From Escherichia coli (GTDB taxonomy: Bacteria > Pseudomonadota > Gammaproteobacteria > Enterobacterales > Enterobacteriaceae): 64,000 nucleotides of DNA. The stretch is taken from assembly GCF_044647545.1 (NCBI RefSeq), contig NZ_CP172818.1. One strand, written 5' to 3'. Of the stretch, positions 20,383 to 61,580 are shown one piece after another; within the stretch, counting starts at the first letter, position 1, and each line of letters opens with the position of its first letter. A model generated the notes under the pieces. It was not told the origin of the DNA and searched no databases. It saw only the letters and a list, made by a program, of their open reading frames with translations. Made by a program: the position numbers and the translations under genes.

Positions 20383-21681
20383 ATGACACTCACGCTCAAT
20401 AGACAACTTCTCTCCTCACGCCAGATTCTGGTGGCCTTTAGCGGCGGGCTTGACTCCACCGTTCTGCTGCATCAGTTGGTGCAGTGGCGGACGGAAAATC
20501 CGGGCGTCACTCTACGCGCTATCCATGTGCATCACGGTTTAAGTGCCAATGCCGATGCCTGGGTTAGGCATTGCGAGAACATCTGCCAACAGTGGCAGGT
20601 GCCGCTGGTGGTCGAGCGCGTGCAACTTGCGCAAGAAGGACTGGGCATTGAGGCCCAGGCGCGGCAGGTGCGTTATCAGGCATTTGCTCGTACCCTGTTA
20701 CCCGGTGAAGTGCTGGTCACCGCGCAACATCTCGACGATCAATGTGAAACCTTTCTGCTGGCGCTAAAACGCGGTAGCGGCCCTGCCGGGCTTTCGGCTA
20801 TGGCGGAAGTCTCGGAGTTTGCCGGAACGCGGCTTATCCGCCCGTTGCTCGCCCGCACGCGGGGAGAACTGGTGCAGTGGGCGCGTCAGTATGATTTACG
20901 CTGGATTGAAGACGAAAGTAATCAGGATGATAGCTACGATCGTAACTTCCTGCGCCTGCGCGTGGTGCCGTTATTGCAGCAGCGTTGGCCGCATTTTGCC
21001 GAAGCAACGGCCCGCAGCGCTGCGCTTTGCGCTGAACAAGAGAGCCTGTTAGATGAACTGCTGGCGGATGATATAGCGCACTGTCAAAAGCCGCAGGGGA
21101 CGCTGCAGATTGCGCCAATGCTGGCGATGAGTGATGCCCGCCGCGCGGCGATTATCCGCCGCTGGCTGGCAGGGCAGAATGCACCGATGCCTTCCCGCGA
21201 CGCGTTGGTGAGGATCTGGCAGGAAGTGGCGCTGGCGCGGGAAGATGCTTCCCCCTGTTTACGTCTGGGCGCGTTTGAAATCCGCCGCTATCAGTCGCAA
21301 CTGTGGTGGATTAAATCCGTTGCCGGGCAAAGCGAAACCATTGTGCCGTGGCAGACGTGGCTACAACCGCTGGAATTACCGGCGGGACTGGGAAGTGTAC
21401 AGCTTACTGCGGGAGGCGATATTCGCCCTCCGCGTGCAGACGAAGCGGTCAGCGTGCGTTTCAAAGCGCCAGGATTGCTGCATATTATCGGGCGCAACGG
21501 CGGACGTAAGCTGAAGAAAATCTGGCAAGAGCTGGGTGTGCCGCCGTGGCTACGTGACACCACGCCACTGCTGTTTTATGGCGAAACGTTGATTGCGGCG
21601 GCAGGGGTATTTGTGACGCAAGAAGGTGTGGCTGAAGGTGAGAATGGCGTCAGTCTTGTCTGGCAGAAAACGCTTAGTTAA
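20383..21681 (+). CDS. tilS: tRNA(Ile)-lysidine synthetase
   Basis: 432-aa ORF; PP-loop SGGLDS motif near N-terminus. Confidence 0.93.
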
Positions 21682-21688
21682 GTGAAAG

Positions 21689-21721
21689 CCGGATAAGACG
21701 CTTCAAACGTCGCATCCGGCG
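21689..21721. repeat. REP-like palindromic unit between convergent tilS and rof
   Basis: GCCGGATAAGACGC ... GTCGCATCCGGC imperfect palindrome. Confidence 0.5.
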
Positions 21722-21729
21722 AAAGTCAA

Positions 21730-21984
21730 TCAGGACTCGCTCACCACCACCGTACCAATTTCCGGGTGGCTAAAGCTGGTAATTTTATCCAGACGTAGCT
21801 CGCGGGTTTCGCCAGCAGCTTCGACGACCAGATATTCCACATTTTTGCGGGAGACTAAATCGCTGGCCTTCCCCTGCAGTTTTTCGCCATCTTTCAGCTC
21901 AAGTGTCAGCATTAAATGATGCTGGCAGGCGAGCTCAAGATTATCGTAATCATCACAATTGATTGGTTGATACGTATCATTCAT
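21730..21984 (-). CDS. rof: Rho-specific transcription termination inhibitor Rof
   Basis: 84 aa from second Met ([23 protein letters not shown]...); track ORF starts 2 codons earlier. Confidence 0.85.
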
Positions 21985-22177
21985 TGACATAATCGCTCAC
22001 CAGTAAGTTTGCCGCAGCGTATGCTGCTTTTTCCCTGACAGCCTCAGAAAGGGCATCGTCGGCAGCCATTTCATTCAGCACTTTCAAAACGCAGCCCAGC
22101 GCGTCCGGAACGTATCCTAAGTCTCCGCTGGCGATTTCCGCGTACCGCTTGCGTATTAACTCACAATATTTTTCCAC
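21977..22177 (-). CDS. yaeP: small conserved protein YaeP (GTG start)
   Basis: 66 aa (M)[21 protein letters not shown]...; 8-nt overlap with rof start. Confidence 0.8.
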
Positions 22178-23320: not shown

Positions 23321-24031
23321 ATGGTGAAAAAAGCGATAGTGACAGCGATGGCTGTAATCAGCCTCTTTACTCTGATGGGATGTAATAATCGGGCCGAAGT
23401 CGATACGCTTTCTCCGGCACAGGCTGCCGAACTGAAACCGATGCCGCAAAGTTGGCGCGGCGTGCTGCCGTGTGCTGATTGCGAAGGAATCGAAACCTCT
23501 CTGTTCCTCGAAAAAGACGGAACCTGGGTGATGAATGAGCGTTATCTGGGGGCTCGTGAAGAACCTTCCTCCTTCGCTTCCTACGGTACATGGGCGCGAA
23601 CCGCTGACAAGCTGGTATTAACCGATAGCAAAGGTGAAAAGTCATATTATCGCGCGAAAGGAGATGCGCTGGAGATGCTCGATCGTGAAGGTAATCCGAT
23701 TGAATCGCAGTTCAACTATACGCTGGAACCGGCACAATCCAGCTTACCCATGACACCGATGACCCTGCGGGGCATGTATTTTTATATGGCTGATGCGGCG
23801 ACCTTCACTGATTGCGCGACCGGAAAACGTTTCATGGTGGCGAATAACGCAGAGCTGGAGCGTGGCTACCTGGCTGCGCGCGGTAACAGTGAAAAACCGG
23901 TGTTACTGTCAGTAGAAGGTCACTTTACGCTTGAGGCTAATCCGGATACCGGTGCGCCGACCAAAGTATTAGCGCCCGATACGGCAGGTAAATTTTACCC
24001 AAACCATGATTGCAGTAGTTTGGGGCTGTAA
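23321..24031 (+). CDS. nlpE: outer membrane lipoprotein NlpE
   Basis: 236-aa ORF with lipobox LMGC and CXXC motif. Confidence 0.93.
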   Translation: MVKKAIVTAMAVISLFTLMGCNNRAEVDTLSPAQAAELKPMPQSWRGVLPCADCEGIETSLFLEKDGTWVMNERYLGAREEPSSFASYGTWARTADKLVLTDSKGEKSYYRAKGDALEMLDREGNPIESQFNYTLEPAQSSLPMTPMTLRGMYFYMADAATFTDCATGKRFMVANNAELERGYLAARGNSEKPVLLSVEGHFTLEANPDTGAPTKVLAPDTAGKFYPNHDCSSLGL

Positions 24032-24063
24032 CCCGTCTTGAGACAGAAACAAATGAAATATTG

Positions 24064-24166
24064 CCTCATGCGCTGCGCTTATCAGGCCTAAAGCATACAA
24101 TGCAATATTTTGAATTAGCACAATTTTGTAGGCCGGATAAGGCGTTCACGCCGCATCCGGCATTTT
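24064..24166. repeat. BIME: two REP palindromic units in opposite orientation
   Basis: ...GCGCTGCGCTTATCAGGCCTA... and ...TAGGCCGGATAAGGCGTTCACGCCGCATCCGGCA... Confidence 0.7.
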
Positions 24167-24186
24167 GCGCACGAGGCTGGCTTTTA

Positions 24187-25011
24187 TCACTGAGTCAGCC
24201 CAACAAAGCGGCCTGCCTTGATATAAATCCCAGGCTTCATGTGCCCAACATACTGTAACTGCGTTTCTGGCTTAAACGCAGAGATATCGCCAGTACGCAT
24301 ATGCATCAGATCGGCAGGGCTAATCCAGCCTGATTGCGCCAGCGTAAGCGGATGCCCGGCTTTGGCAAATGCATCAGTGACAAATTCCGAACAAAACCAC
24401 GACTTTTTGTCTCCTTCGCCAACGTTACTTAACTGTGCTTTCGCCAGGCCGCTGACGCACTGTTGACGAAAATCCTCGGAGAATGGATTTAGTGAGCACA
24501 TCTGGCGAGTCACCATAAATGGAATAAATTCGACAATGCCGCGATAGTTGTAACCGCTATCTTTAATTTTGTTGGCGAACGCGGTGATTTCTGTGGCTTG
24601 TTGCGGGGTAAGATCCGGGACTCGTAAGACGAAAAGCTTATCACTATGCTTTATGGCTTTTTTAAGGGAAACAATCTGGACGCCAGCGCCTGTCGCTTCG
24701 GCAACGTTGTTATCTCCCAAATAGATTGCAACGTGACTCACAGAGGAAGTGCTGAATACGCGGATACCAAATGAGGTTACCCCAAGGCTTGAGGAGAAAA
24801 GCAAATCGCCGGGTTTGAGATCTGGTTCCGTTATTTCTTTTATTGATTGTTCGGTGAAAGAGCTTTGATGCTGGAATTTAACAGCCCATGTTTTCGCCTC
24901 GGCATTTACCACTGTGGCTGATGAGTCTGGCTGGCTGATATCAACGGTACAGGCCGAAAGTACAAGAAAGCAGGGGAGAAGCAGGCGGCAGTACGCCTTT
25001 GGTTTATCCAT
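24187..25011 (-). CDS. yaeF: putative NlpC/P60-type lipoprotein
   Basis: 274 aa from MDKPKAYCRLLLPCFLVLSAC (lipobox); track ORF 3 codons longer. Confidence 0.85.
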   Translation of the reverse strand: MDKPKAYCRLLLPCFLVLSACTVDISQPDSSATVVNAEAKTWAVKFQHQSSFTEQSIKEITEPDLKPGDLLFSSSLGVTSFGIRVFSTSSVSHVAIYLGDNNVAEATGAGVQIVSLKKAIKHSDKLFVLRVPDLTPQQATEITAFANKIKDSGYNYRGIVEFIPFMVTRQMCSLNPFSEDFRQQCVSGLAKAQLSNVGEGDKKSWFCSEFVTDAFAKAGHPLTLAQSGWISPADLMHMRTGDISAFKPETQLQYVGHMKPGIYIKAGRFVGLTQ

Positions 25012-44991: not shown

Positions 44992-45068
44992 GGAGCGGTA
45001 GTTCAGTCGGTTAGAATACCTGCCTGTCACGCAGGGGGTCGCGGGTTCGAGTCCCGTCCGTTCCGCCA
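44992..45068 (+). tRNA. aspV: tRNA-Asp (GTC)
   Basis: Identical in sequence to the aspU copy at 36941-37017. Confidence 0.95.
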
Positions 45069-45097
45069 AATTCACTCATGAAAATGAGTTCAGAGAA

Positions 45098-45127
45098 CCG
45101 CAAGATTTTTAATTTTGCGGTTTTTTG
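45098..45127 (+). terminator. putative terminator after aspV
   Basis: CCGCAA ... TTGCGG hairpin followed by T6. Confidence 0.5.
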
Positions 45128-45393
45128 TATTTGAATCCCGCCATTTCTCTGTTCAATGATTTTACTCTAGCGTAAGTGCGTGATTCTCGCTTGTTGTCTC
45201 ATTCATTAAAATTCAATAATGATATCGAGCCATTCAGCTTAAATATATTTTCAGAGAATAATTTTATATTGATTAAGTGAATGTATATTTCAAATTGATT
45301 TTATTTGTTATTATTTAAGTGGGGTATATAATTAGAGTTCGTTATCAGTGCTAAATATTCTAATCATTATGACAGGCGAGGGAGTGTCCGATT

Positions 45394-46179
45394 ATGAATT
45401 CAAAAAAGGTTTGTTGCATATGTGTGTTATTCTCGCTGCTTGCAGGATGTGCCTCTGAATCTTCTATTGATGAAAAGAAGAAAAAAGCTCAAGTCACACA
45501 AAGTAATATTAATAAAAATACCCCCCTGCAACTGACAGACAAAGATTTATTCGGTAATGAAACCACTCTGGCCGTATCCGAGGAGGATATTCAAGCTGCG
45601 CTTGATGGAAATGAGTTCCGCGTTCCCCTTAATTCTCCTGTAATACTTGTTCAATCCGGCAACCGCGCACCGGAAACCATTATGCAGGAGGAGATGCGAA
45701 AATATTATACTGTTTCCACATTCTCTGGTATCCCGGACAGGCAAAAGCCTCTGACTTGTAACAAAAACAAAGATAAAAATGAGAACGAGGATGTTGCCAG
45801 TGCTGAAAATATGAACTGGATGCAGGCATTGCGTTTTGTGGCTGCGAAAGGGCATCAGAAAGCGATTATTGTTTACCATGATACGTTGCAGACAGGAAAA
45901 TATGACACTGCACTGAAATCAACAGTATGGTCCGATTATAAAAATGAAAAAATTACTAACACAATCTCACTGCGCTATCTGGTGCGATTCACGCTGGTGG
46001 ATGTAACTACAGGTGAGTGGGCTGCCTGGTCGCCGGTGAATTATGAATATAAAGTGCTTCCACCATTGCCCGGCAAGAATGAAGCCAGTACGACTGATAT
46101 GACAGAGCAGCAAATCATGCAACTTAAGCAAAAGACCTATAAAGCGATGGTAAAAGATTTGGTTAACCGCTATCAATAA
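45394..46179 (+). CDS. yafT: putative lipoprotein
   Basis: 261-aa ORF; signal peptide plus lipobox LAGC; AT-rich codon usage. Confidence 0.85.
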
Positions 46180-46328
46180 TAAATTATATCTGCCGCCAGG
46201 AATTTCTGGCGGCAATAATACAGAATTCTTTGCATAAGAAATTTTTTCCTGACAAAGACTGTGCAAAAAAGGACATGGAATCCGGAGTTAAAAACTGTTT
46301 GTTTTAGAATATTTAATTATTTAACTGC

Positions 46329-46796
46329 TTAATCTTCCTTGCGAGAAATATATTCATTATTACATTTCATGCCATTTTTAATATAGGTTGCTCCTGGGAA
46401 AATCCCCGTGTTATTACCGCAGGGGTGATAATTATCATTAACATATCCTGTGACAAAAGGAGCTATTAAAGGTGCTATTACGATAGCTATTAGTAAAAAT
46501 ATAAGAGTTAGCTGTATTGTTATGTCTGTGGCGAAATTGATTACCTTTGTTTTTTTTATTAAGAATGATTTTATTATCGTTAGTAAAATTACATGAATAT
46601 TTAACAAGGAAAACGATATGAAACCGAAGCATAGAATCAACATTCTCCAATCATAAAATATTTCCGTGGAGCCTTTTATTATTGAATATAGAGGTTTAAT
46701 TCCGGTAAAAAACAAAGATGCATTGAATGCAGGGAAAAATAATATGGCTATAAAAAACATCGAAAGAAACTCTTTCAATTTAACATGTAAACGCAT
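46329..46796 (-). CDS. ykfM: putative inner membrane protein
   Basis: 155-aa hydrophobic, AT-rich ORF; start may lie a few codons upstream. Confidence 0.65.
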   Translation of the reverse strand: MRLHVKLKEFLSMFFIAILFFPAFNASLFFTGIKPLYSIIKGSTEIFYDWRMLILCFGFISFSLLNIHVILLTIIKSFLIKKTKVINFATDITIQLTLIFLLIAIVIAPLIAPFVTGYVNDNYHPCGNNTGIFPGATYIKNGMKCNNEYISRKED

Positions 46797-46810
46797 AGTT
46801 AATCCTCATA

Positions 46811-47098
46811 TCACAGGGGGGTGTTAAGAACATACATAAATGGAGTCATGTTTTCCCTTTTCCATTTATCAAGTTCCTGTTGCCGTTTTAGTCCATCTCT
46901 AATTGCATCTTTTAATTTTTCTGATAAATGGTATTGAACATCGATTTCATTTAAAACAACTGTACACACTATCCCCGTAAGTAAAATTGCTCCTCCTACA
47001 AGAATTACTGGAAGGCCAAAACTAAGACAGGCAAAAGAAGCCAGGCTTCCAATAGCGGTTGCAACACCGCCTGCAATCACTGCTTTGGCCACATCCAT
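46811..47098 (-). CDS. yafU: putative small membrane protein
   Basis: 95-aa ORF with a hydrophobic helix; start uncertain. Confidence 0.6.
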   Translation of the reverse strand: MDVAKAVIAGGVATAIGSLASFACLSFGLPVILVGGAILLTGIVCTVVLNEIDVQYHLSEKLKDAIRDGLKRQQELDKWKRENMTPFMYVLNTPL

Positions 47099-47162
47099 TG
47101 AAAAATCACCAAGAAAATTAACCAGATCTCGCTCTGAACTCGTAATAAATTCTATGGTTCTG

Positions 47163-47439
47163 CTGATTTAACCGCAGAAAAGTTCGCCACAGCAATCCGA
47201 AACCACTGGCACGTGGAGAATAAGCTGCACTGGCGTCTGGACGTGGTAATGAATGAAGACGACTGCAAAATCAGCGAAAGAGGAAACGCCGCAGAATTAT
47301 TTTCAGGATACGGCGCATCGCTATTAATATTTTGACGAATGATAAGGTATTTAAGGCAGGGTTAAGACGTAAGATGCGAAAAGCAGCTATGGACAGAAAC
47401 TATCTGGCGTCAGTCCTTGCGGGGAGCGGGCTTTCGTAG
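47163..47439 (+). mobile_element. yafF: H-repeat (ISAs1-family) transposase C-terminal fragment, frameshifted
   Basis: Translation ...[40 protein letters not shown]... then, after a frame change, ...[36 protein letters not shown]. Confidence 0.75.
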
Positions 47440-47477
47440 TCTTCCCCGACTCTCCCCGGCCTTAAATACAACACCAC

Positions 47478-48248
47478 TCACCACAACCTAAACTCATCCG
47501 CATCCCGCCATGCCGGAAACTTTTCTCTATATTCCCGCAATGCCACCATCGACAGCTCCGCATCAATGCGCGTTGCCTGATGCGCGTCGGCAGTAGCGAT
47601 AATCTCGCCCTGTGGATTAATCACCCTGCTGTCACCACGATAATGGCAGCCGTTGCCATCGCTGCCGACGCGATTGCATCCCGCCACATACGCCTGATTC
47701 TCAATCGCGCGGGCTGTCAGCAATGCCTGCCAGTGCAGAGAGCGCGGAGCAGGCCAGTTGGCGACGTACAGGGCGAGGTCATAATCGTTGAGATTGCGCG
47801 ACCACACAGGAAAACGTAAGTCGTAGCACACCAGCGGCAAAATACGCCAGCCGCGCCATTCCACAATCACTCGCGCATTGCCCGCTTTATAATGCAGATG
47901 CTCATCTGCCATGCGGAACAGATGACGCTTATCATAAAAATGTACCGTGCCGCCCGGCTCAACCAGCAAAAAGCGGTTAACCGAACCAGACTCCGTTTGT
48001 AATGCAACACTGCCTGCAATCAGCGCATTGCACTGCTGCGCCTTAGCTGTCATCCAGTTCACTACGTCATTTTGTGCTAGCGACGAAGCTGCCGCTTCCA
48101 TGGCAAAGCCGCTGGTAAACATCTCCGGTAGAACGATCACATCGCGCCCGGTAATACCTTCCAGTTGACGATCAAAATGGCGCAGGTTGGCAGGGCCATC
48201 CATCCACACCAGTGGTTGCTGCAAAAGCGTAATCTTCAAACCAGGCAC
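47478..48248 (-). CDS. yafV: omega-amidase / nitrilase-family hydrolase (GTG start)
   Basis: 256 aa (M)PGLKITLLQQPLVWMDGPANL; CN-hydrolase fold. Confidence 0.88.
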   Translation of the reverse strand: MPGLKITLLQQPLVWMDGPANLRHFDRQLEGITGRDVIVLPEMFTSGFAMEAAASSLAQNDVVNWMTAKAQQCNALIAGSVALQTESGSVNRFLLVEPGGTVHFYDKRHLFRMADEHLHYKAGNARVIVEWRGWRILPLVCYDLRFPVWSRNLNDYDLALYVANWPAPRSLHWQALLTARAIENQAYVAGCNRVGSDGNGCHYRGDSRVINPQGEIIATADAHQATRIDAELSMVALREYREKFPAWRDADEFRLW

Positions 48249-48401
48249 GGTGTACAACTCCTTTATGCGAAGGGTTTTATAACTCTAACACCTTATCAGG
48301 CAGTTGCCTTAGCGCAGAATAAATTGATAACAAATGCTGATATTGGAAATATCTGATTTGCAAATTATCGTGTTATCGCCAGGCTTTAGGAGGTTAATAA
48401 C

Positions 48402-48875
48402 ATGGGCAGGATAAGCTCGGGAGGAATGATGTTTAAGGCAATAACGACAGTCGCCGCTCTGGTCATCGCCACCAGTGCAATGGCGCAGGATGATTTAACC
48501 ATTAGCAGCCTTGCAAAGGGCGAAACCACCAAAGCGGCGTTTAATCAGATGGTGCAAGGGCATAAGCTGCCTGCCTGGGTGATGAAAGGCGGTACTTATA
48601 CCCCTGCACAAACCGTAACGTTGGGAGATGAGACGTATCAGGTGATGAGCGCGTGCAAACCGCATGACTGTGGCTCGCAACGTATCGCTGTGATGTGGTC
48701 CGAGAAATCTAATCAGATGACGGGGCTGTTCTCGACCATTGATGAGAAAACGTCGCAAGAGAAACTCACCTGGTTGAATGTGAACGATGCGCCTTCTATT
48801 GATGGTAAAACGGTGCTGTTCGCGGCGTTGACCGGCAGCCTGGAAAACCATCCGGATGGCTTTAATTTTAAATAA
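48402..48875 (+). CDS. ivy: inhibitor of vertebrate lysozyme
   Basis: 157-aa ORF with signal peptide; CKPHDCG inhibitory loop. Confidence 0.9.
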   Translation: MGRISSGGMMFKAITTVAALVIATSAMAQDDLTISSLAKGETTKAAFNQMVQGHKLPAWVMKGGTYTPAQTVTLGDETYQVMSACKPHDCGSQRIAVMWSEKSNQMTGLFSTIDEKTSQEKLTWLNVNDAPSIDGKTVLFAALTGSLENHPDGFNFK

Positions 48876-48917
48876 TTAGCGGATAAAGAAACGGAGCCTT
48901 TCGGCTCCGTTATTCAA

Positions 48918-51362
48918 TTACGCGGCTTCAACTTTCCGCACTTTCTCCGGCAACTTTACCGGCTTCGTCGCCAGCTCTTCCGGATCAAAGTCATCAACGT
49001 TAATACTGCGCAGACGGCTTTCTTCAGCTTTCACAAGAATAGCGGCTTCATCTTTATCAATCAGCCCCTTCGCCAGCGCGTTATGCGCCAGTTCATCCAG
49101 ACGGGTAAACGGCAGGTTTTTACCCAGCTCTTTACAGATCCGCTGATGAATTGGGTCGGCGGCAATCACATCCACCAGCGCCTCTTCCAGTAAACCAACC
49201 GGGTTATGCTCGCTCGGCGTCAGGTACTGACCGCGACCAATACGTGAACGGGTGGCGTTCGGCACTTGTAAAATCTTCGCCACCTTATGATCCAGCTTAT
49301 CAGAAGGTGCCAGATAATGACGTCCGGTCGGGAAGATCACCACATTCAGCAGCCCGGCAACCACGCGGTTCGGGAAGTTTTGCAGTAAATCGTCCATCGC
49401 CTGCTCTGCCTGATACAGCGCATCCTGTACGCCCCAGTGCACCAGCGGCAGGTCGGCTTCATTACGGCCTTCGTCGTCATAACGCTTCAGAACGGCAGAG
49501 GCGAGGTAAAGCTGGCTTAAAATATCCCCCAGACGTGCCGAGATGCGCTCGCGACGTTTCAGGCTGCCGCCCAGCACCGCCATCGAGACATCAGAAAGCA
49601 GGGCGAGGTTGGCGCTCAGGCGGTTCAGGTGCTGATAGTAGCGTTTAGTGGCATCGCCGGTTGGCGTGCTGCTGGTTAAACCGCGCGTCAGGCCCAGCCA
49701 GAAGCTGCGAACTTTGTTGCTACCGACGTGACCGATATGTTTGAACAGCAGTTTATCGAACGCATTTACGTCATTGTTCTTCGCCGCTTCCATCTCTTCC
49801 AGCACGTACGGATGGCAACGAATCGCTCCTTGTCCGAAGATCATCATGCTGCGGGTCAGAATGTTAGCCCCTTCAACGGTGATGGCAATCGGTGCGCCCT
49901 GGTAAGCACGGGCCAGGAAGTTGCTCTGCCCGAGCATAATGCCTTTGCCACCAGTGATATCCATCGCATCAATAATCGACTGCTGCCCACGGTGGGTACA
50001 GTGATACTTAACGATAGCCGACAGCACGGCAGGTTTTTCACCGAGCATAATGCCGTAGGTAATCAGCGATGCCGCAGCATCCATTACATAAGCGTTTCCG
50101 GCAATACGCGCCAGCGGCTCTTCAATCCCTTCCATCTTACCAATAGAGATTTTGAACTGACGGCGGATGTGCGCATACGCACCCGTTGCCAGCGCTACCG
50201 ATTTCACGCCGCCGGTTGAGTTGGAAGGCAGGGTGATACCGCGGCCTACCGAGAGGCACTCCACCAGCATCCGCCAGCCTTGCCCGGCCATTTTTGGTCC
50301 GCCGATAATGTAATCGATCGGTACGAAGACATCTTTACCGCGCGTCGGTCCGTTCTGGAACGGCACGTTCAGCGGGAAGTGGCGACGACCAATTTCCACG
50401 CCCGGCGTGGTGGTCGGGATCAGCGCACAGGTAATACCTAAATCTTCTGCGCCACCCAGCAGTTTTTCCGGGTCGGAGAGTTTAAACGCCAGACCAAGCA
50501 CGGTCGCAATCGGCGCGAGCGTAATGTAGCGTTTGTTCCAGGTCAGTCGCATCCCCAGCACCTGCTGGCCCTGCCACTCGCCCATGCAAACAATCCCGGT
50601 ATCCGGAATCGCGCCCGCATCGGAACCCGCTTCGGGGCTGGTCAGTGCAAAGCAAGGGATCTCCTGACCACGCGCCAGACGCGGCAGATAGTGATCTTTC
50701 TGCTCGTCAGTGCCGTAATGTTGCAGTAGCTCACCCGGGCCTAATGAGTTTGGCACGCCGACGGTAATCGCCAGGATCCCGCTCACGCCGGAGAGTTTTT
50801 GCAGCACGCGAGACTGGGCATAAGCCGAGAACTCCAGCCCGCCGTACTCTTTTTTGATGATCATCGCGAAGAAGCGATGCTCTTTAAGATACGCCCACAG
50901 CTCCGGCGGCAAATCCGCCAGCTCATGGGTAATCTGGAAATCATTCGCCATCCGGCAGGCTTCTTCTACCGGACCGTCGAGAAACGCTTGCTCTTCAGCG
51001 GTCAGGCGCGGCTGCGGATAGTTATGCAGCTTTTTCCAGTCCGGCTTGCCCTGGAACAAGTCGCCCTCCCACCAGGTGGTGCCCGCATCAATCGCTTCTT
51101 TCTCAGTGCGCGACATCGGCGGCATTACCTTACGGAAACCGCGAAATACCGGCGCGGAAATCATCGACTTACGCATAGGCGCAAAGTTAAATGGCACGAG
51201 GATAATGGCCAGAGGCACCAGTACCCACGCCGACCACAGACCAGCAACGCCGAGTGCGGCTGTCCAGGCGAGCAAAATCAGACTGCTGATAAATAAGCTC
51301 ACGCGGTGATAGAACAACGCGCCGAGCAGGACAACCGTAGCGAGAATACTCAAAATCATCAT
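48918..51362 (-). CDS. fadE: acyl-CoA dehydrogenase
   Basis: 814 aa from [24 protein letters not shown]; track ORF carries 26 extra upstream codons. Confidence 0.93.
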
Positions 51363-51601
51363 AACGAAAAGCCCCTTACTTGTAGGAGGTCTGACCACTT
51401 GTGATGATATGGTTGTAGTGGATGTAAAAACATTTAGCAATGTGTTTACAATATAATTACAACGAAGCTCACATTGTTGCTGTTTTTATCCGCACTTCAG
51501 GTCAAAAAGTCCTGGTCATAGCATCTGCCCGTACTTCTCGCTTTTGGCGGTATCCGGTACACTGCATTTTGTCTATTACATTTATGCTGAAGGATATCCT
51601 C

Positions 51602-52180
51602 ATGTACCAGGATCTTATTCGTAACGAACTGAACGAAGCGGCGGAAACGCTGGCTAATTTTTTAAAAGATGACGCCAATATTCACGCCATTCAGCGCGCG
51701 GCGGTCCTGTTAGCAGACAGCTTTAAAGGCGGTGGCAAAGTGCTTTCTTGCGGCAACGGCGGCTCCCATTGCGACGCTATGCACTTTGCTGAAGAGTTGA
51801 CGGGGCGCTACCGTGAAAACCGTCCGGGCTACCCGGCGATTGCCATTTCTGACGTTAGTCATATTTCCTGCGTCGGTAACGATTTTGGTTTCAATGATAT
51901 TTTCTCCCGTTACGTTGAAGCGGTAGGTCGCGAAGGCGATGTACTGCTGGGGATCTCTACCTCCGGTAACTCTGCAAACGTGATCAAAGCGATCGCAGCG
52001 GCGCGTGAGAAGGGGATGAAAGTGATCACCCTGACCGGTAAAGATGGCGGCAAAATGGCTGGCACGGCGGATATTGAAATTCGCGTTCCGCACTTTGGTT
52101 ATGCCGACCGCATTCAGGAGATCCACATTAAAGTGATCCATATCCTGATCCAGTTAATTGAAAAAGAGATGGTTAAGTAA
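51602..52180 (+). CDS. gmhA: sedoheptulose 7-phosphate isomerase
   Basis: 192 aa from [20 protein letters not shown] domain. Confidence 0.93.
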
Positions 52181-52291
52181 GGTCTTTTCTCCCCAGGGAG
52201 AGGGCCGGGTGAGGGTAACAGCCTGCACCTTTGTACTTTTTAATCAATCTTCGCCGGGGGCCATGCGCTCCCGCTGTTGTGGAGGTTACCC

Positions 52292-53059
52292 ATGTGCGAA
52301 TTGCTCGGGATGAGCGCCAACGTCCCTACTGATATCTGCTTTAGTTTCACCGGGCTTGTACAGCGTGGTGGTGGAACCGGGCCACATAAAGATGGCTGGG
52401 GCATCACCTTTTACGAAGGTAAAGGCTGTCGCACATTTAAAGATCCACAACCCAGCTTTAATTCCCCCATCGCCAAACTTGTCCAGGACTACCCGATAAA
52501 ATCCTGTTCGGTTGTGGCTCATATTCGCCAGGCCAATCGGGGCGAGGTGGCGCTGGAAAATACTCACCCGTTTACCCGCGAGTTATGGGGACGTAACTGG
52601 ACTTATGCCCATAACGGGCAACTGACGGGGTACAAATCACTGGAAACCGGCAACTTCCGCCCGGTCGGTGAAACCGACAGCGAAAAAGCCTTCTGCTGGC
52701 TCCTGCATAAATTAACGCAGCGTTACCCGCGCACACCGGGCAATATGGCGGCAGTGTTTAAATATATCGCCTCACTGGCGGATGAACTGCGGCAGAAGGG
52801 CGTTTTCAACATGCTGCTTTCTGACGGACGCTATGTAATGGCGTATTGCTCGACTAATTTACACTGGATCACCCGCCGCGCGCCGTTTGGCGTGGCAACG
52901 TTGCTGGATCAGGATGTGGAAATCGACTTCAGCTCGCAGACCACACCGAATGATGTGGTCACGGTGATTGCAACACAGCCGCTGACGGGCAATGAAACCT
53001 GGCAAAAGATTATGCCAGGCGAATGGCGCTTATTTTGCCTCGGGGAGCGTGTAGTTTGA
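52292..53059 (+). CDS. yafJ: class II glutamine amidotransferase-like protein
   Basis: 255 aa from [19 protein letters not shown] (Cys at position 2). Confidence 0.88.
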
Positions 53060-53770
53060 TGCCAGCTGTGGCTGCACAACTTCGTGGCTTAACGGCTTGC
53101 TGACCACGTAACGGCCATTGACCACAGAAACGGTCGGTGGCTTACGGGTTTGCTCAAAGTAGTCGTAGCCCGGCTTCAGTTGCTCCCAGAAGTCCTTAAA
53201 GTTGGAATATTTATGGCGCTTCATATTGGCGTCGGTCATGCGGAACGGGTAAATACTCACTTGCACGCTCGGCTGACCAAACACCAGCGCACCAGTAACG
53301 AACTGGAAGATCTCATCAATACCCTGATTGGTCATCGCGTAGCAGCCGATGGAAACACAATCGCCGTGGATCATCAGATATTTCCCTTCATAACCATGCG
53401 CACGGTCATAGGCATTGGGGAATCCAATATTAATCGCTTTGTAGTAACGGCTGTCTGGTTTTAACTGATTACGCTGGACGCTATAAAACCCTTCCGGGCT
53501 TTTGAAATCGCCCTGACGCTGTTTTGGCCCTAAGCCGCCGGAATATTTACAGATTTTATAGCTGTCGAGCAGTTGATATTGCTCGCCCATTTTGACGTAG
53601 AGATCGAGCGTACGTTCTTCCTTGAAGATCTGGATGTAGACAGGGGATCCCATCAACTGCTGCTTATACTCTTTGCTCACTGGCGTGGTCGAGCTACTGC
53701 TGCCCAGCAAACCGGCAAACGAAACGCACGGGATCAACAACATCGCAAGAATTAATGCGATTTTACGCAT
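53030..53770 (-). CDS. yafK: L,D-transpeptidase
   Basis: 246-aa ORF with signal peptide; YkuD-type motif around [12 protein letters not shown]. Confidence 0.88.
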
Positions 53771-53924
53771 ACTGCTTATTCCTTGATAAAACGGTTACAC
53801 ACGCCAGGACGGCAAAATGGATCCCAAATCGGAATAGTCTGGATTTGGAAGGCTCACATTATCACCAAAAGAGTTTTACGCAAGCCTGTCGGCGCAGGGT
53901 TTACAAATTTCATCGGCAGCGGGC

Positions 53925-54203
53925 TTTACCCAAATAGCGCCGCGTGAGTTCCAGTTCTCTCAAATCGTAAAAGTTTATCGGTAAGTTTGTAAATCAGGAT
54001 CCAGTCCGGTTCGACATGAGCATCGCGATAACCTTTCCATGAACCTTGCAGCGGGTGGTCTTTATAAACAGCTGGAAGCAGTAAAGTATTATTGATAAGA
54101 GCGTCATAAGATATTTCAATTTATTCATATCCTTATGACGCTTTTGTGCAAGTTTTACATCCTTTGAAAATTGTCCCGAGTATTCAATATCCCTTTGAAT
54201 CAT
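53925..54203 (-). pseudogene. yafQ: YafQ mRNA-interferase toxin, frameshifted
   Basis: First 36 codons from ATG at 54203 match YafQ; frame breaks near 54094-54096; the +1 frame continues with ...YKDHPLQGSWKGYRDAHVEPDWILIYKL...FERTGTHAALFG to 53925. Confidence 0.8.
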
Positions 54204-54205
54204 AT

Positions 54206-54466
54206 TTAAATTCCTAATTTATCAAATAAATCATCGGCGTCTTTGGCCTTATGAATACCAACGCCAGCTTCGCTGTTTTTGATTGATTGAATAGTTAATT
54301 GATTAGGCTCGCGTAAATCAAACGGCAATGCCTTTTCACGCGCGACCTTTGTGAGGGTTATGCGAACCAGGTCAGAGATGGTCAGCCCCATCCCGGCCAG
54401 TACGTCCGCCGCCTGATTCTTCAGATCTTCATCGATTCGGGCGCGAACAAACGCGTTAGCAGCCAT
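54206..54466 (-). CDS. dinJ: DinJ antitoxin
   Basis: 86-aa ORF MAANAFVRARIDEDLKNQAADVLAGMGLTISD; immediately upstream of yafQ. Confidence 0.92.
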   Translation of the reverse strand: MAANAFVRARIDEDLKNQAADVLAGMGLTISDLVRITLTKVAREKALPFDLREPNQLTIQSIKNSEAGVGIHKAKDADDLFDKLGI

Positions 54467-54482
54467 TGGGATATCTCCTGTG

Positions 54483-54498
54483 CTGTATATTTATTCAG
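54483..54498 (-). promoter_or_regulatory. LexA-like box in dinJ promoter region
   Basis: CTGTATATTTATTCAG, close to CTGT-N8-ACAG. Confidence 0.5.
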
Positions 54499-54675
54499 CT
54501 TGAATTGTAGCTCAAATGAGCAACAGCGACAATCCATGAGTAATTTAATAAACGGATGTTTTTACATAATTAACTGAAATATATTTATTAATTTTATAAT
54601 AATGGTTTATTAAGTTTGTTCAGGTACGGGCCGGGATACACTGCAACATCAATGCATGACCAGCCATTATTGAGA

Positions 54676-55425
54676 ATGTCTTTGCCGTCGATTCCCTCTT
54701 TTGTGTTGTCGGGATTACTGTTGCTTTGCTTGCCGTTTTCTTCATTTGCCAGCGCCACCACATCACATATCTCTTTCAGCTACGCCGCCCGCCAGCGGAT
54801 GCAAAACCGTGCGCGTTTATTAAAACAGTACCAAACCCATCTGAAAAAACAGGCCAGCTATATTGTGGAAGGCAATGCCGAAAGCAGAAGGGCGCTACGC
54901 CAGCACAACCGGGAGCAGATAAAACAGCATCCAGAATGGTTTCCTGCGCCGCTCAAGGCGAGTGACAGACGCTGGCAGGCGCTGGCGGAAAACAACCACT
55001 TTTTAAGCAGCGATCACCTGCATAACATCACCGAAGTGGCGATTCACCGCCTGGAGCAGCAGCTTGGCAAGCCTTATGTCTGGGGCGGCACGCGGCCCGA
55101 TAAAGGCTTCGACTGTAGCGGGTTGGTTTTTTATGCCTACAACAAGATCCTTGAGGCGAAGCTCCCGCGCACAGCCAATGAGATGTATCACTACCATCGG
55201 GCAACGATTGTGGCGAACAACGACCTGCGCCGGGGAGATTTGCTGTTTTTCCATATTCACAGCCGCGAGATAGCCGATCATATGGGGGTGTATCTGGGAG
55301 ACGGTCAGTTTATCGAGTCACCACGTACCGGCGAAACCATTCGGATAAGCCGGTTAGCTGAACCTTTCTGGCAGGATCATTTTTTAGGCGCGCGGCGGAT
55401 TTTGACGGAAGAGACGATTTTGTAG
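54676..55425 (+). CDS. yafL: NlpC/P60-family putative peptidoglycan endopeptidase
   Basis: 249 aa from MSLPSIPSFVLSG; signal peptide; conserved Cys (DCSGLV) and His. Confidence 0.85.
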   Translation: MSLPSIPSFVLSGLLLLCLPFSSFASATTSHISFSYAARQRMQNRARLLKQYQTHLKKQASYIVEGNAESRRALRQHNREQIKQHPEWFPAPLKASDRRWQALAENNHFLSSDHLHNITEVAIHRLEQQLGKPYVWGGTRPDKGFDCSGLVFYAYNKILEAKLPRTANEMYHYHRATIVANNDLRRGDLLFFHIHSREIADHMGVYLGDGQFIESPRTGETIRISRLAEPFWQDHFLGARRILTEETIL

Positions 55426-57182
55426 GCAGGGATCTCCCCCACAACACTCAACGCCCCCATAATCTTCAACTCCAGCTCGTCCGGCACTTCGTTATACGAC
55501 AGCACATGCAGCCCCGGCGCAAACAATCTCGCATAGCGCGCCAGCAAAGGGCGCAACTGCGGTGGCACCAGCAGCACAGGGTCTTTCCCCGCCGCTTTCA
55601 TCTGCTCCTTCACCTGCGGCATCGTACTCTGGAACTGGTTGAGCATATTCGGGTCTACCGGCACGCTGTCGAGCATCACTTTGCCGGCCTGTTGCGCCTG
55701 ATTCACCACGTTGGTCAGCAGATTTTCCAGCTCATTATTCAGCGTATACACCGTCAGCTCCTGCTTGCGAACGAACGGATGGGTAATGCTGCGCCGCAGC
55801 GCCAGGCGCACATCTGCCGCCAGCAGAATATGATCTTTGGTCACCGCACTACTGGCGACCAGCACGGTGGCGATGGTGACGATATCGCGCAGGGAAACGC
55901 CTTCAGTCAGCAGCGCCCGGTACACTTTCAGCAACTGGCTGTAATTCAGCGCCGCGCTCAAATCCTCCGCCAGTCGCGGTGCCATCGACGACAGGCGGTT
56001 ATGCAACTGCGTAATATCGTCATAGTTAAATAAATCAGGAATATAGCTGCGCACAATCTTATTCACATGCGTGGCAATTACGCTGGCGCTGTCGATCACC
56101 TGATACCCCATATTCAGCGCCTTCGCTTTCTGCGCAGGCTGAATCCAGGTGACCGGCATCCCATATGCCGGGTCATTCCCCAGTACGCCGTCAATCTCGC
56201 CGTAGGTTTCGCTGGAGGGCAGGGCCATCAGTTTATCCGCCGGAATATCCGCTTCATCAGCCTTAATGCCGTTGATGAAAATGGCGTACTGGCTGGGCTT
56301 GAGACGGAAGTTTTCCCGAATACGGATCTCCGGCAGCAGCACGCCGTTACCGTCGGATATCACCTGCCGCACGCCGCGAATCCGCTGGGTGAGCGGGTTC
56401 CCCTGCGCTTTGTCCACCAGCGCCACCAGCTTGTAGCCGAGGCTTAAGCTGATGGGCTCGATCAGCGGAATGGTTTCCCAACTGACCTGTTGCTCGCTGG
56501 TTTCGGTGATGGTTCGGGTCAGCGTTTCGAGGCTTTTCTCCTCCGCCTCCGCCGCCTGCGGGCGTTTGCTCATCCGCCAGCCGGTAAAGCCAAGCAGGGC
56601 GCTGAACAGCAAAAATGGCAGATGCGGCATCCCCGGCACCACCGCCAGCACAAACATGATCCCGGTGGCGGTGTAGAGCACCGACGGACTTGCCAGCAGC
56701 TGGTGGCGCACGTCATGGGCGATATCGCCGTTGTCGCTGACGCGGGTGACGATAATTGCCGCCGCGGTGGAGAGCAGCAGGGACGGGATCTGCGCCACCA
56801 GCCCGTCGCCGATAGTCATCAGCACATATTGCTGGAAGGCGGCGTCGGCGCTCAGGTTGTATTTGAAGATCCCGATACAGACGCCGCCGATCAGGTTGAT
56901 CGCCAGAATCATCATCCCGGCGATGGCATCGCCGCGCACAAACTTCGATGCCCCGTCCATTGCGCCGTAGAAATCGGCCTCGCTGGCAACATCTTTACGC
57001 CGGGTTTGTGCCTGCGCCTGGTTGATCAATCCGGCGTTAAGATCGGCGTCAATCGCCATCTGTTTACCGGGCATCGCGTCCAGGGTAAAGCGGGCAGAAA
57101 CCTCGGAAATACGCTCGGCCCCTTTGGTGACGACGATAAAGTTGATTGTCAACAGCGTCAGTAAATCCGAGCGTGAAAGCAT
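55377..57182 (-). pseudogene. lfhA: FlhA-like flagellar export protein remnant (Flag-2 cluster), 5'-truncated
   Basis: About 600-aa ORF with FlhA-family similarity (…FVRGDAIAG…, C-terminal cytoplasmic domain) lacking the N-terminal TM region and a credible start. Confidence 0.8.
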
Positions 57183-57912
57183 TATCGCCGCGCTACACGG
57201 GCAGTCGATTTTTAACGGTGGCGGGCTGTCGCCGTTAAATAAAATCAGCCCGTCTCATCCGTCAAAACCTGCCACCGTGGCAGTGCCGGAAGAGACGGAG
57301 AAAAAAGCGCGCGACGTCAACGAGAAAACGGCGCTGCTGAAGAAGAAATCCGCCACCGAGCTTGGCGAGCTGGCGACCAGTATCAATACCATCGCCCGTG
57401 ATGCGCATATGGAAGCGAATCTGGAGATGGAGATTGTTCCCCAGGGATTACGCGTGCTGATTAAAGACGACCAGAACCGCAATATGTTCGAACGCGGCAG
57501 CGCACAGATTATGCCGTTCTTTAAAACTTTGCTGGTGGAGCTTGCGCCAGTGTTCGACTCGCTCGATAACAAAATTATTATTACCGGGCATACCGATGCG
57601 ATGGCCTACAAAAACAATATCTACAATAACTGGAACCTTTCGGGTGACCGCGCGCTTTCGGCTCGTCGGGCGCTGGAAGAGGCAGGAATGCCGGAAGATA
57701 AAGTGATGCAGGTGAGCGCAATGGCGGACCAGATGCTGCTGGACGCGAAAAATCCGCAAAGCGCGGGCAACCGGCGCATTGAGATTATGGTGCTGACTAA
57801 AAGCGCGTCCGATACGCTGTATCAATACTTTGGTCAGCATGGGGATAAAGTGGTGCAGCCGCTGGTGCAAAAGCTGGATAAGCAGCAGGTGCTTTCACAG
57901 CGAACGCGTTAA
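57157..57912 (+). pseudogene. lafU: MotB/OmpA-like flagellar motor protein remnant (Flag-2 cluster), 5'-truncated
   Basis: C-terminal OmpA-like domain (NWNLSGDRALSARRALEEAG...NRRIEIMVL); no N-terminal TM segment or start codon; 5' boundary approximate. Confidence 0.7.
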
Positions 57913-57948
57913 ATGCTGAATCTTTACGCATTTCTCAAACTCTGAAAT

Positions 57949-57968
57949 CACTGTATACTTTACCAGTG
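57949..57968 (+). promoter_or_regulatory. LexA operator (SOS box) of dinB
   Basis: CACTGTATACTTTACCAGTG about 15 nt upstream of the dinB start. Confidence 0.8.
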
Positions 57969-57982
57969 TTGAGAGGTGAGCA

Positions 57983-59038
57983 ATGCGTAAAATCATTCAT
58001 GTGGATATGGACTGCTTTTTCGCAGCGGTGGAGATGCGCGACAATCCCGCCCTGCGCGATATCCCTATTGCTATTGGCGGCAGCCGCGAACGTCGGGGGG
58101 TGATCAGCACCGCCAATTATCCCGCGCGTAAATTTGGCGTACGCAGCGCTATGCCGACAGGGATGGCGCTCAAATTATGCCCACATCTCACGCTGCTTCC
58201 AGGGCGCTTTGACGCCTACAAAGAAGCCTCAAATCATATCCGCGAAATTTTCTCGCGCTATACCTCGCGCATTGAACCGTTATCACTGGATGAAGCCTAT
58301 CTCGACGTCACCGATAGTGTGCATTGCCACGGTTCTGCGACCCTCATCGCCCAGGAAATCCGTCAGACGATCTTTAACGAGCTGCAACTGACGGCATCTG
58401 CGGGCGTTGCGCCGGTAAAGTTTCTCGCCAAAATTGCTTCCGACATGAATAAACCCAACGGTCAGTTTGTGATTACGCCGGCAGAAGTTCCGGCATTTCT
58501 GCAAACCTTACCGCTGGCAAAAATTCCCGGCGTCGGCAAAGTCTCGGCGGCAAAACTGGAAGCGATGGGGCTGCGGACCTGCGGTGATGTGCAAAAGTGT
58601 GATCTGGTGACTCTGCTCAAACGTTTTGGCAAATTTGGCCGCATTTTGTGGGAGCGTAGTCAGGGGATTGACGAGCGCGACGTTAACAGCGAGCGGTTGC
58701 GAAAATCCGTCGGCGTGGAACGCACGATGGCGGAAGATATTCATCACTGGTCTGAATGTGAAGCGATTATCGAGCTGCTGTATCCTGAACTTGAACGCCG
58801 TCTGGCAAAGGTAAAACCTGATTTACTGATTGCTCGCCAGGGGGTGAAATTAAAGTTCGACGATTTTCAGCAAACTACTCAGGAGCACGTCTGGCCGCGG
58901 CTGAATAAAGCTGATCTGATCGCCACCGCGCGTAAAACCTGGGATGAACGTCGCGGCGGGCGCGGTGTGCGACTGGTGGGGCTGCATGTGACGTTGCTTG
59001 ACCCTCAAATGGAAAGACAACTGGTGCTGGGATTATGA
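57983..59038 (+). CDS. dinB: DNA polymerase IV (Y-family translesion polymerase)
   Basis: 351-aa [25 protein letters not shown]. Confidence 0.95.
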
Positions 59039-59089
59039 TGTATACTATTATGTATATTCTGATGTTCATTATTATGAGGGGATCACTGT

Positions 59090-59383
59090 ATGCATCGAAT
59101 TCTCGCTGAAAAATCGGTCAATATCACTGAGTTACGTAAAAACCCAGCTAAATACTTTATTGATCAACCGGTTGCGGTTCTTTCTAATAATCGCCCCGCA
59201 GGATATCTCTTAAGTGCCAGCGCATTTGAAGCGTTAATGGACATGCTTGCTGAACAAGAGGAGAAAAAACTGGTTAAGGCGCGCTTCCGTCCGAGTGCCG
59301 CAAGATTAGAGGAAATTACACGCCGCGCTGAACAATATCTTAATGATATGACGGATGATGATTTCAATGACTTTAAGGAATAA
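59090..59383 (+). CDS. yafN: YafN antitoxin
   Basis: 97-aa ORF; Phd/YefM-like; precedes yafO. Confidence 0.88.
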   Translation: MHRILAEKSVNITELRKNPAKYFIDQPVAVLSNNRPAGYLLSASAFEALMDMLAEQEEKKLVKARFRPSAARLEEITRRAEQYLNDMTDDDFNDFKE

Positions 59384-59385
59384 GG

Positions 59386-59784
59386 ATGCGGGTATTCAAA
59401 ACAAAACTTATTCGCCTGCAACTTACAGCAGAGGAACTTGATGCGTTAACAGCGGATTTTATTTCCTATAAGCGTGACGGTGTTTTGCCAGATATATTTG
59501 GTCGCGATGCACTCTACGACGACTCGTTTACCTGGCCATTAATCAAATTTGAGCGAGTTGCTCATATTCATCTGGCAAATGTGAATAATCCATTTCCGCC
59601 ACAGTTGCGCCAATTCAGCAGAACGAATGACGAAGCGCATTTGGTATATTGTCAGGGTGCGTTTGATGAGCAAGCATGGTTGCTCATTGCCATTCTGAAA
59701 CCTGAACCTCATAAACTGGCTCGAGATAACAACCAAATGCATAAAATTGGGAAAATGGCAGAAGCGTTTCGCATGCGTTTTTGA
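59386..59784 (+). CDS. yafO: YafO ribosome-dependent mRNA interferase toxin
   Basis: 132-aa ORF MRVFKTKLIRLQLTAEELDALTADF. Confidence 0.88.
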   Translation: MRVFKTKLIRLQLTAEELDALTADFISYKRDGVLPDIFGRDALYDDSFTWPLIKFERVAHIHLANVNNPFPPQLRQFSRTNDEAHLVYCQGAFDEQAWLLIAILKPEPHKLARDNNQMHKIGKMAEAFRMRF

Positions 59785-59793
59785 ATTTATATT

Positions 59794-60246
59794 ATGAATA
59801 ACATACAAATAAGAAACTATCAGCCTGGCGATTTTCAGCAACTATGCGCTATTTTCCTTAGAGCGGTTACGATGACCGCCAGTCAGCATTATTCACCACA
59901 ACAAATTGCCGCCTGGGCGCAGATTGACGAATCTCGCTGGAAGGAGAAACTCGCGAAATCACAAGTGCGGGTTGCAGTTATTAATGCACAACCGGTTGGT
60001 TTTATTACCCGCATTGAACATTATATCGATATGTTATTTGTTGAACCTGAATACACCCGACGCGGGGTTGCCAGCGCTTTGTTAAAACCATTGATTAAGT
60101 CTGAATCCGAACTTACGGTGGACGCCAGCATAACCGCAAAGCCCTTTTTTGAACGTTATGGTTTTCAGACAGTTAAGCAGCAGTGCGTTGAATGCCGGGG
60201 AGAGTGGTTTACTAATTTTTATATGCGATATAAACCGCAACATTAA
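59794..60246 (+). CDS. yafP: GNAT-family N-acetyltransferase
   Basis: 150-aa ORF; acetyl-CoA-binding motif RRGVASALL. Confidence 0.88.
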   Translation: MNNIQIRNYQPGDFQQLCAIFLRAVTMTASQHYSPQQIAAWAQIDESRWKEKLAKSQVRVAVINAQPVGFITRIEHYIDMLFVEPEYTRRGVASALLKPLIKSESELTVDASITAKPFFERYGFQTVKQQCVECRGEWFTNFYMRYKPQH

Positions 60247-60424
60247 ATCCAGCTTGCAATGAAAATAACGCCCGCCTAGTATGTGTGCGTTTTCTTATTC
60301 CACAAACTGCAAGGAGGTAAATCATGACAAATCCTTTATCAATGACTCTTTGCAGACCTTTCCAGGATTAATTCTTTTTTTCTTGCCCTGGATTCGTCTG
60401 CCATTTCCTGATTTTTATTCATAA

Positions 60425-60691
60425 ATGGAATGGTACATGGGCAAATATATTCGTCCCTTATCCGATGCGGTATTTACCATCGCATCTGATGACCTGTGGA
60501 TCGAGAGTTTAGCGATCCAACAATTACACACCACGGCAAATTTACCCAACATGCAACGCGTAGTAGGGATGCCAGATTTACATCCCGGACGCGGCTATCC
60601 GATTGGCGCAGCGTTCTTCTCCGTAGGCCGTTTTTACCCGGCAAGACGTCGCGGTAACGGTGCTGGAAACAGAAACGGGTCGCTACTCTGA
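60425..60691 (+). pseudogene. ykfJ: RtcB-like RNA ligase N-terminal fragment
   Basis: 88-aa ORF with RtcB-type motif GMPDLHPGRGYPIGAAF, then terminates; overlaps prfH. Confidence 0.7.
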
Positions 60692-61160
60692 CACACTGCG
60701 TTCGGCGCTGATTTCTCTGGATGGCGATAACGCATGGGCTCTAAGCGAAAGCTGGTGTGGCACTATCCAGTGGATTTGTCCGAGTCCGTATCGGCCTCAT
60801 CATGGGCGCAAAAACTGGTTTCTGGGCATTGGGCGTTTTACCGCTGATGAGCAGGAACAATCCGACGCGATCCGTTATGAGACGCTGCGTTCGTCGGGGC
60901 CGGGCGGTCAACATGTCAATAAAACCGACTCGGCGGTACGCGCCACGCATCTGGCATCCGGTATTAGCGTGAAGGTTCAGTCAGAGCGCAGTCAGCATGC
61001 TAACAAACGGCTGGCGCGATTACTGATTGCCTGGAAGCTGGAACAACAGCAACAGGAAAATAGCGCGGCGCTGAAATCGCAGCGGCGAATGTTCCATCAT
61101 CAAATTGAACGTGGCAATCCGCGACGGATATTTACCGGGATGGCTTTTGTTGCTGTGTAA
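60660..61160 (+). CDS. prfH: peptide chain release factor homolog RF-H (likely N-terminally truncated)
   Basis: 166-aa ORF with GGQ motif ([20 protein letters not shown]). Confidence 0.85.
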
Positions 61161-61580
61161 TTGAAGAATGAAACTCCCGCCGTTTTCTATATGAAAGCGC
61201 GCGCAAAACGAAAGAATCTCATTTTATCTCTCTTCCCTTTTTTTGATAAATCTTTCTTGTAGAACTTCTGTTGCTTCATCGCGCCGGTTTTTGGCTTAGT
61301 TTGGCCATTCGCCCGTTTTTGATCTTTTTGGCGTCGGGTGGTAACGCCAAACTCACTTTTTCCTCTTAGGCATAATATGGTTTGTCCGCCGGGGGGCTAG
61401 TTTTGGGCGGAAAAGAGAAAAACCCTTTCCAAATTGTTTTTCGACTGCGATCTGGGTCTTTCGGTAACACTTTCCTACATAGGTATTTTTTTTTTATTTT
61501 TAAAAAAAAAAAAAATCAAAAAAAGATAGCCATTGGCTTCAAACAGAAGTCCACGCCCGCAGGCGTGGACATTATCGTAA

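Follow-up and report, generated by a model that had tools for sequence, protein, structure and literature searches.

The nlpE-yaeF intergenic region

In the window, by which we mean the whole 64,000-nt stretch of Escherichia coli DNA that was analysed, the genes nlpE and yaeF are convergent and their two stop codons are separated by a spacer of 155 bp (24032-24186). Both coding sequences were located from the open reading frame list and from the RefSeq annotation of E. coli FDAARGOS_497, a genome that is 100% identical to the window across this region. In that annotation tilS, rof, yaeP, yaeQ, arfB and nlpE lie on one side of the spacer and yaeF and proS on the other; the gene identities nlpE, yaeF, tilS and rof given in a preliminary description of this DNA are therefore correct. 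Transfer of the FDAARGOS_497 annotation is good only for positions 5-47161 of the window (99.9% identity); the remainder diverges. The RefSeq records inspected (MG1655 and others) contain no annotated REP features for the nlpE-yaeF region.

The features referred to below, with the evidence for each where it is specific to that feature, are the following:

20383-21681, + strand: tilS coding sequence
21688-21720, - strand: single y-like REP GCCGGATGCGACGTTTGAAGCGTCTTATCCGGC between tilS and rof (fold, REP head and profile)
21730-21990, - strand: rof coding sequence
23321-24031, + strand: nlpE coding sequence
24029-24031, + strand: nlpE stop codon, TAA
about 24038-24062, + strand: left terminal ('A'-type) motif TTGAGACAGAAACAAATGAAATATT (alignment; the nhmmer alignment begins at 24038)
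24063-24091, + strand: decayed short z-type (z1) REP in iREP orientation, GCCTCATGCGCTGCGCTTATCAGGCCTAA (consensus match)
24092-24127, no strand assigned: L linker of BIME-1, 36 nt (aligns with L of four other loci and of dozens more)
24103-24115, - strand: IHF-consensus-like core ATTCAAAATATTG within L (1 mismatch to WATCAANNNNTTR)
24128-24161, - strand: y REP (perfect match to the consensus)
24162 to about 24180, + strand: truncated right terminal ('B'-type) motif ATTTTGCGCACGAGGCTGG (alignment and profile)
24187-24189, - strand: yaeF stop codon (TCA on the + strand)
24187-25011, - strand: yaeF coding sequence

The spacer contains two inverted REP units

The preliminary description had placed two imperfect palindromes of REP type, in opposite orientation, between the convergent genes. 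The consensus matches, a profile of independent copies (see below) and the orientation of the units all confirmed this: in the REP/BIME consensus scan the y unit showed 0 mismatches and the z unit 3, with 0 matches in shuffled sequences.

The y REP (24128-24161, - strand) is identical at 34 of 34 positions to GCCGGATGCGGCGTGAACGCCTTATCCGGCCTAC, the consensus that has been published for the annotated REPs of E. coli (PMC12306157), which was matched 0 times in 100 dinucleotide shuffles. Read on the + strand, it consists of GTAG (24128-24131) followed by an imperfect palindrome (24132-24161). On both strands the hairpin folds with about -21 kcal/mol (z values near -4.2 and -4.8); its stem has 7+4 bp and contains 2x2 internal loops. 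Internal mismatches of this kind are typical of REPs, for which an imperfect palindrome with an internal mismatch and a conserved GTAG at its foot have been described as required (PMC3333891). No difference was found between this unit, which is also extragenic, and the y type of REP, or palindromic unit.

The left unit (24063-24091, + strand) matches the short z REP GCCTGATGCGCTACGCTTATCAGGCCTAC, printed elsewhere as GCCTGATGCGCTACGCTTATCAGGCCTACG (PMC11208160), at 26 of 29 positions; the 3 mismatches compare with 0 matches in the shuffles. Its stem is broken because of a G to C change, and its fold (-6.8 kcal/mol, z 0.08) is no better than that of shuffled sequence. In addition, its tail reads CTAA where CTAC is expected, so that the IS621 target ATCAGGCCTAC reads ATCAGGCCTAA and is spoiled in the window. 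Judged by its sequence, this unit is a clearly homologous but decayed member of the REP family; an intact z1 is present at the nlpE-yaeF locus in other strains.

The two units are mutually inverted, with their CTAC/GTAG ends pointing inwards, and are joined by the L linker, which is covered at high posterior probability in the profile alignment. Matches to the IHF-type core (WATCAANNNNTTR, 1 mismatch) occur 59 times in the window against 55 expected, which is not above chance; since the core matches at chance frequency, it is family membership only that points to IHF binding at L. Among the papers searched, none mentions nlpE, yaeF and IHF together. The fold of the whole spacer, in which pairing of z with y could give a long hairpin, was unremarkable (z -1.4).

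On both sides the similarity to other copies extends beyond the REPs. The left terminal motif, which in the family has the form GAGACTGATGACAAACGCAAAA, is present with changes at 24038-24062: copies at other loci read TTGAGACTGATGACAAACGCAAAATT and the window TTGAGACAGAAACAAATGAAATATT. On the right, the window has preserved no more of ..GAACAAAGCGCACTTTGTCAGCAATCTG than its GCGCAC core; the block shared by other loci includes ..GAACAAAGCGCAC.., of which the window retains only TTTTGCGCAC, followed by unrelated sequence. The range first proposed for the element, 24061-24180, was thus close. Its left limit has to be moved about 23 nt outwards, to the start of the mosaic at about 24038, and its last part, 24162-24180, is a partial flanking motif and not REP.

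The element belongs to the BIME-1 class

Two units that score as REPs and point in opposite directions within one spacer make the element a BIME. BIME-1 elements have been described as one y and one z1 unit with a long, well-conserved linker L, often carrying an IHF site (PMC3333891, PMC1187871), and BIME-2 elements as y and z2 units with short linkers, arranged in tandem (PMC3333891, PMC6379681). In the REPtron sequence the long z unit is the one named z2; the short unit of the window is therefore z1, and the element a BIME-1.

A profile HMM was made from four BIME-1 copies at other loci, with the window excluded. Its match in the window covers 24038-24220 and scores 123.8 bits (E=8.1e-38). 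Nearly the whole 155-bp spacer is one BIME-1 mosaic. The composite of z1, L, y and flanks aligns with the copies at uspB/pitA, chbG/katE, fdhE/yiiF and fbaA/mscS, and the block common to these copies reaches past the REPs into the flanks on both sides. Identity to BIME-1 copies from other Escherichia and Pseudocitrobacter genomes was about 83-88% over 103-135 nt. Matching places are dispersed over the genomes, the median per genome being at least 37-40.

These results identify the content of the nlpE-yaeF spacer, with a probability of about 0.9, as one copy of the E. coli BIME-1 element (also named RIB or RIP), old and partly decayed. The copy shares with the class the inverted y and short z units (the latter decayed), the conserved L with an IHF-type core, the left terminal motif in altered form and the core of the right one, its single occurrence (about 140 bp), its position where transcription units end, and its presence or absence according to the isolate, a variation already described for BIME-1 (PMC1187871). 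It departs from the class in the mismatch of the z stem, in CTAA for CTAC, in the truncation of the right terminal motif and in lacking a flanking hairpin duplication that was found at many other copies (see below). BIME-1 at this locus is an already known, ordinary kind of element and adds no new biology; descriptions of the family go back to the 1980s and 1990s, and it is among the bacterial repeat families known longest.

A single REP lies between tilS and rof

The preliminary description had also mentioned a single REP-like unit at 21689-21721. The unit is real, although its stem occupies 21688-21720, one base away. It matches the REP head exactly, folds with -18 to -21 kcal/mol and is recognized by the y part of the BIME-1 profile at 21683-21720 (E=0.0024). 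The palindrome is kept, whereas the GTAG/CTAC tetranucleotide of the y type is lost, the tail reading CTTTC and not CTAC. The unit is a genuine, separate single REP without the GTAG tail.

Within the tilS-rof spacer (21682-21729) this REP begins 6 nt after the tilS stop codon and ends 9 nt before that of rof. According to work cited in PMC12306157, REPs located at most 15 nt from a stop codon lower the translation of the gene upstream. Both gaps are inside this distance, a geometry with which the unit might dampen upstream translation.

The nlpE-yaeF spacer is highly polymorphic among E. coli strains

The expectation that such elements are frequent sites of length polymorphism between strains was borne out at one locus and not at the other. 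Comparison of 5,426 complete E. coli genomes showed that the nlpE-yaeF spacer varies in length and has at least seven structural alleles, whereas the tilS-rof unit was fixed, with no length change, in 5414 of the 5426. The allele counts given here are approximate, as they were obtained with coverage thresholds on short queries; the categories overlap slightly and sum to more than 5,426.

The window-type z1-L-y allele was found in 1228 genomes, and in the allele with an intact z1 (GCCTGATG...CCTAC) the spacer measures 154 bp. A K-12-type allele (1918 genomes) carries only the tail of z1, then L, y, a short linker, a long z2 and a truncated y, giving a spacer of 199 bp as compared with 155 bp in the window. 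This arrangement is an atypical BIME, a chimera of BIME-1 and BIME-2: it occupies the same locus and has the L linker and the y REP in common with the window copy, but has lost most of the short z and gained the short linker, the long z2 and the truncated y. In a 173-bp allele (127 genomes) z1 is followed by half of L, z2 and a truncated y. The REPs are missing altogether from 527 genomes (about 10%), in which a 30-bp spacer contains only the hairpin AAAGCCGGAGcattCTCCGGCTTT; this allele bears a weak resemblance to the filled alleles at the right edge only (GGCTTT[C/T]A).

Two insertion sequences were found within the REPs of this spacer. IS621 is inserted at ATCAGGC-CT-AC in z1, flanked at each end by the CT core, in at most 884 genomes and probably in about 600 at nlpE-yaeF; the count of 884 is an upper bound, since an IS621 located in a similar z REP elsewhere can reach 80% coverage. 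The site is exactly the natural target, ATCAGGCCTAC, reported for this bridge-RNA recombinase in REPs (PMC11208160). IS1397, known to insert into REPs (PMC1525189), was found inside the loop of the y REP in 208 genomes, as expected of this insertion sequence.

In the O111:H8 strain 1074-2, at the equivalent of window positions 24081-24092, the z1 tail reads ATCAGTATCTAC where others have ATCAGGCCTAC, and the bases substituted there agree with those at the IS621 right end (..ACAGTATCT). The sequence of this allele suggests the scar of an imprecise IS621 loss through the shared CAG. None of the loci fetched from Escherichia and Pseudocitrobacter genomes was the nlpE-yaeF locus, and they provided no outgroup copy.

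The rayT REPtron is absent from its usual site in the window

At 55430-55448 of the window, yafL is joined to the remnant of lfhA (flhA-like): rayT (tnpA_REP) and its flanking BIMEs are gone, and GTAGGC is left. The absence of rayT was judged at this single canonical yafL-lfhA site, within the 64-kb window. The closest complete genome also lacks the REPtron, but contains a 97-bp filler. Published states of REPtron loss are those in which the BIMEs are kept or hicAB is found in place of the REPtron (PMC3333891); the state of the yafL-lfhA junction in the window differs from both.

Like the REPIN/RAYT systems, the nlpE-yaeF element is an inverted REP doublet with a spacer; its y unit has preserved both features needed for RayT binding, GTAG and the mismatch in the stem. 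It differs from them in that rayT and its flanking BIMEs are missing at the single canonical site, and mobility of the element is not expected.

The wider window was also compared with complete genomes. From the tRNA-Asp gene downstream of dnaQ (about 45.1 kb; 45165 onward), the window is collinear with FDAARGOS_497 only to 47161. Beyond this point it is without most of the type VI secretion island of FDAARGOS_497 and continues with fadE ... lfhA ... dinB ... pepD. No complete genome in the collection matched positions 45000-64000 of the window in one piece.

Alternative interpretations of the element

Convergent genes are a place where terminators are expected, and ATTTTG follows the y hairpin on the + strand, so that the palindromes could be regarded as ordinary gene-specific intrinsic terminators, or as chance inverted repeats, outside the REP family. 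We give this interpretation practically no weight: the consensus and profile scores already refute it (y 34/34 with 0 shuffle matches; composite against the BIME-1 profile, E=8e-38) and the element recurs tens of times per genome. The sequence 3' of the y hairpin offers only ATTTTG, and a promoter and terminator scan called nothing in the nlpE-yaeF spacer (24032-24186, both strands) or in the tilS-rof spacer. The hairpin of the REP-less allele appears to be the real gene-specific terminator-like structure at this locus. Assignment to BIME-2 or to the atypical BIMEs, that is, to the gyrase-binding class with y and long z (z2) units, short linkers and usually a tandem arrangement, could draw on the K-12 allele of the same spacer, with its y, short linker, long z and truncated y. 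The copy in the window has a z of the short type, the 36-nt L as linker and a single occurrence, and a search of the window for GCCTGATGCGACGCTGGCGCGTCTTATCAGGCCTAC-type units or tandem units found none; a BIME-2 is accordingly very improbable here. Only slightly better placed, and still improbable, is a small RNA gene, either an naRNA4-like nucleoid-associated RNA or an ES036-like sRNA. Transcription has been reported for about 80% of REPs (PMC4550694), and Rfam matches were obtained to naRNA4 over the y REP (24131-24201, 43.3 bits, E=1e-5) and to ES036 over the z tail and L (24084-24127, - strand, 25.9 bits, E=0.04). Both scores are under the gathering thresholds (59.5 and 37.6, respectively), no promoter-like site was seen in or beside the spacer, and the matches merely restate REP membership, because those families are REP/BIME-derived. 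One further Rfam match, to a miRNA, was dismissed as spurious.

A different kind of alternative is that the BIME-1 copy is a functionless selfish remnant, a decaying and immobile MITE-like copy persisting neutrally in the shared 3' region. The presence/absence and interruption polymorphism, the lineage-specific mutations in the z stem and in CTAC, the truncated right terminus and the absence of rayT and its BIMEs from yafL-lfhA in the window strain all favour such a remnant; the y unit, still a perfect consensus copy, and the well-kept L do not. We consider it a serious contender, with somewhat less than an even chance of being right. It is compatible with the assignment to BIME-1, as the two differ in how much function they grant the element and not in what the element is.

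Possible mode of action

As a BIME-1, the element could act at several levels. At the DNA level, L may offer a site for IHF binding and bending between the convergent transcription units, by analogy with the family, whose L linkers often include an IHF site (PMC3333891). At the RNA level, transcripts from either of the convergent genes would run into the element, and the y hairpin, located 25 nt beyond the yaeF stop codon and about 100 nt beyond that of nlpE, might serve as a barrier to 3' exonucleases and as a pause or attenuation site, as for other REPs. At the genome level, the two REPs, which in other strains receive REP-specific insertion sequences, would also lend themselves to deletion and recombination, and the spacer may be hypervariable for these reasons. 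The y unit might also be recognized by RayT, given that it retains GTAG and the stem mismatch. The copy itself is old and partly decayed, in a lineage without the rayT REPtron at its usual site. Any function of the element would be dispensable, because about 10% of the genomes are REP-less and many others are IS-interrupted.

Direct repeats of a hairpin bracket many BIME-1 copies elsewhere

Three of the four comparison loci carry a local hairpin as a direct repeat, with one copy on each side of the mosaic. At fbaA-mscS, the difference between genomes with and without the element is exactly 167 bp, and the latter have a single copy of the repeat.

A scan of species-representative genomes for the L+y pattern yielded 89 stretches, of which 64 were left after removal of tandem arrays and orthologous loci. 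A flanking hairpin duplication was present at 23 of these 64 independent BIME-1 loci, as compared with 0.5% of mismatched (permuted) flank pairs. The loci with a duplication belong to E. coli, other Escherichia and Pseudocitrobacter; the locus of the window is not among them, and the duplication was looked for and found to be absent around its nlpE-yaeF copy. The duplicated repeats range from 12 to 34 nt (median 22 nt), and 21 of the 23 fold as hairpins. They abut the conserved BIME-1 termini GAGACTGATGAC and GTCAGCAATCTG; usually an A-rich stretch precedes the repeat on the left and a T-rich stretch follows it on the right. No description of this duplication was found in the papers searched.

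Exact BIME-1 L+y matches were also obtained on contigs of 261-807 bp in assemblies labelled Desulfosporosinus, Bacillus coahuilensis, Methylobacterium and Alkalicoccobacillus, and on contigs of 1.9-3.9 kb of a Collinsella MAG. The matches in these non-enterobacterial assemblies are most likely due to enterobacterial contamination.

The duplication looks like the product of insertion at a bidirectional terminator hairpin, in which the whole hairpin is duplicated, that is, a target duplication with the size of a structure. As a tentative model, which we hold to be possible rather than probable, BIME-1 elements would be about 152 bp long and MITE-like, bounded by imperfect terminal inverted repeats of 12 nt (GAGACTGATGAC ... 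GTCAGCAATCTG), and would insert at the foot of terminator hairpins and duplicate the hairpin (12-34 bp, the length being set by the target structure and not by the enzyme). The copy in the window would then be an old insertion of this kind, now without its duplicated hairpin and right terminus, and its lineage would have lost rayT as well.

If this model is true and has not already been described, it would give REP doublets an insertion signature that is concrete and can be tested, and the duplicated terminator hairpins, if new, could bear on how these doublets spread. With at least seven structural forms across E. coli, the nlpE-yaeF spacer is a compact typing locus, some forms of which record visits by two REP-specific insertion sequences. 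The same forms constitute a natural allele series for the effect of a BIME-1 on the convergent genes yaeF and nlpE, the latter coding for an envelope-stress sensor.
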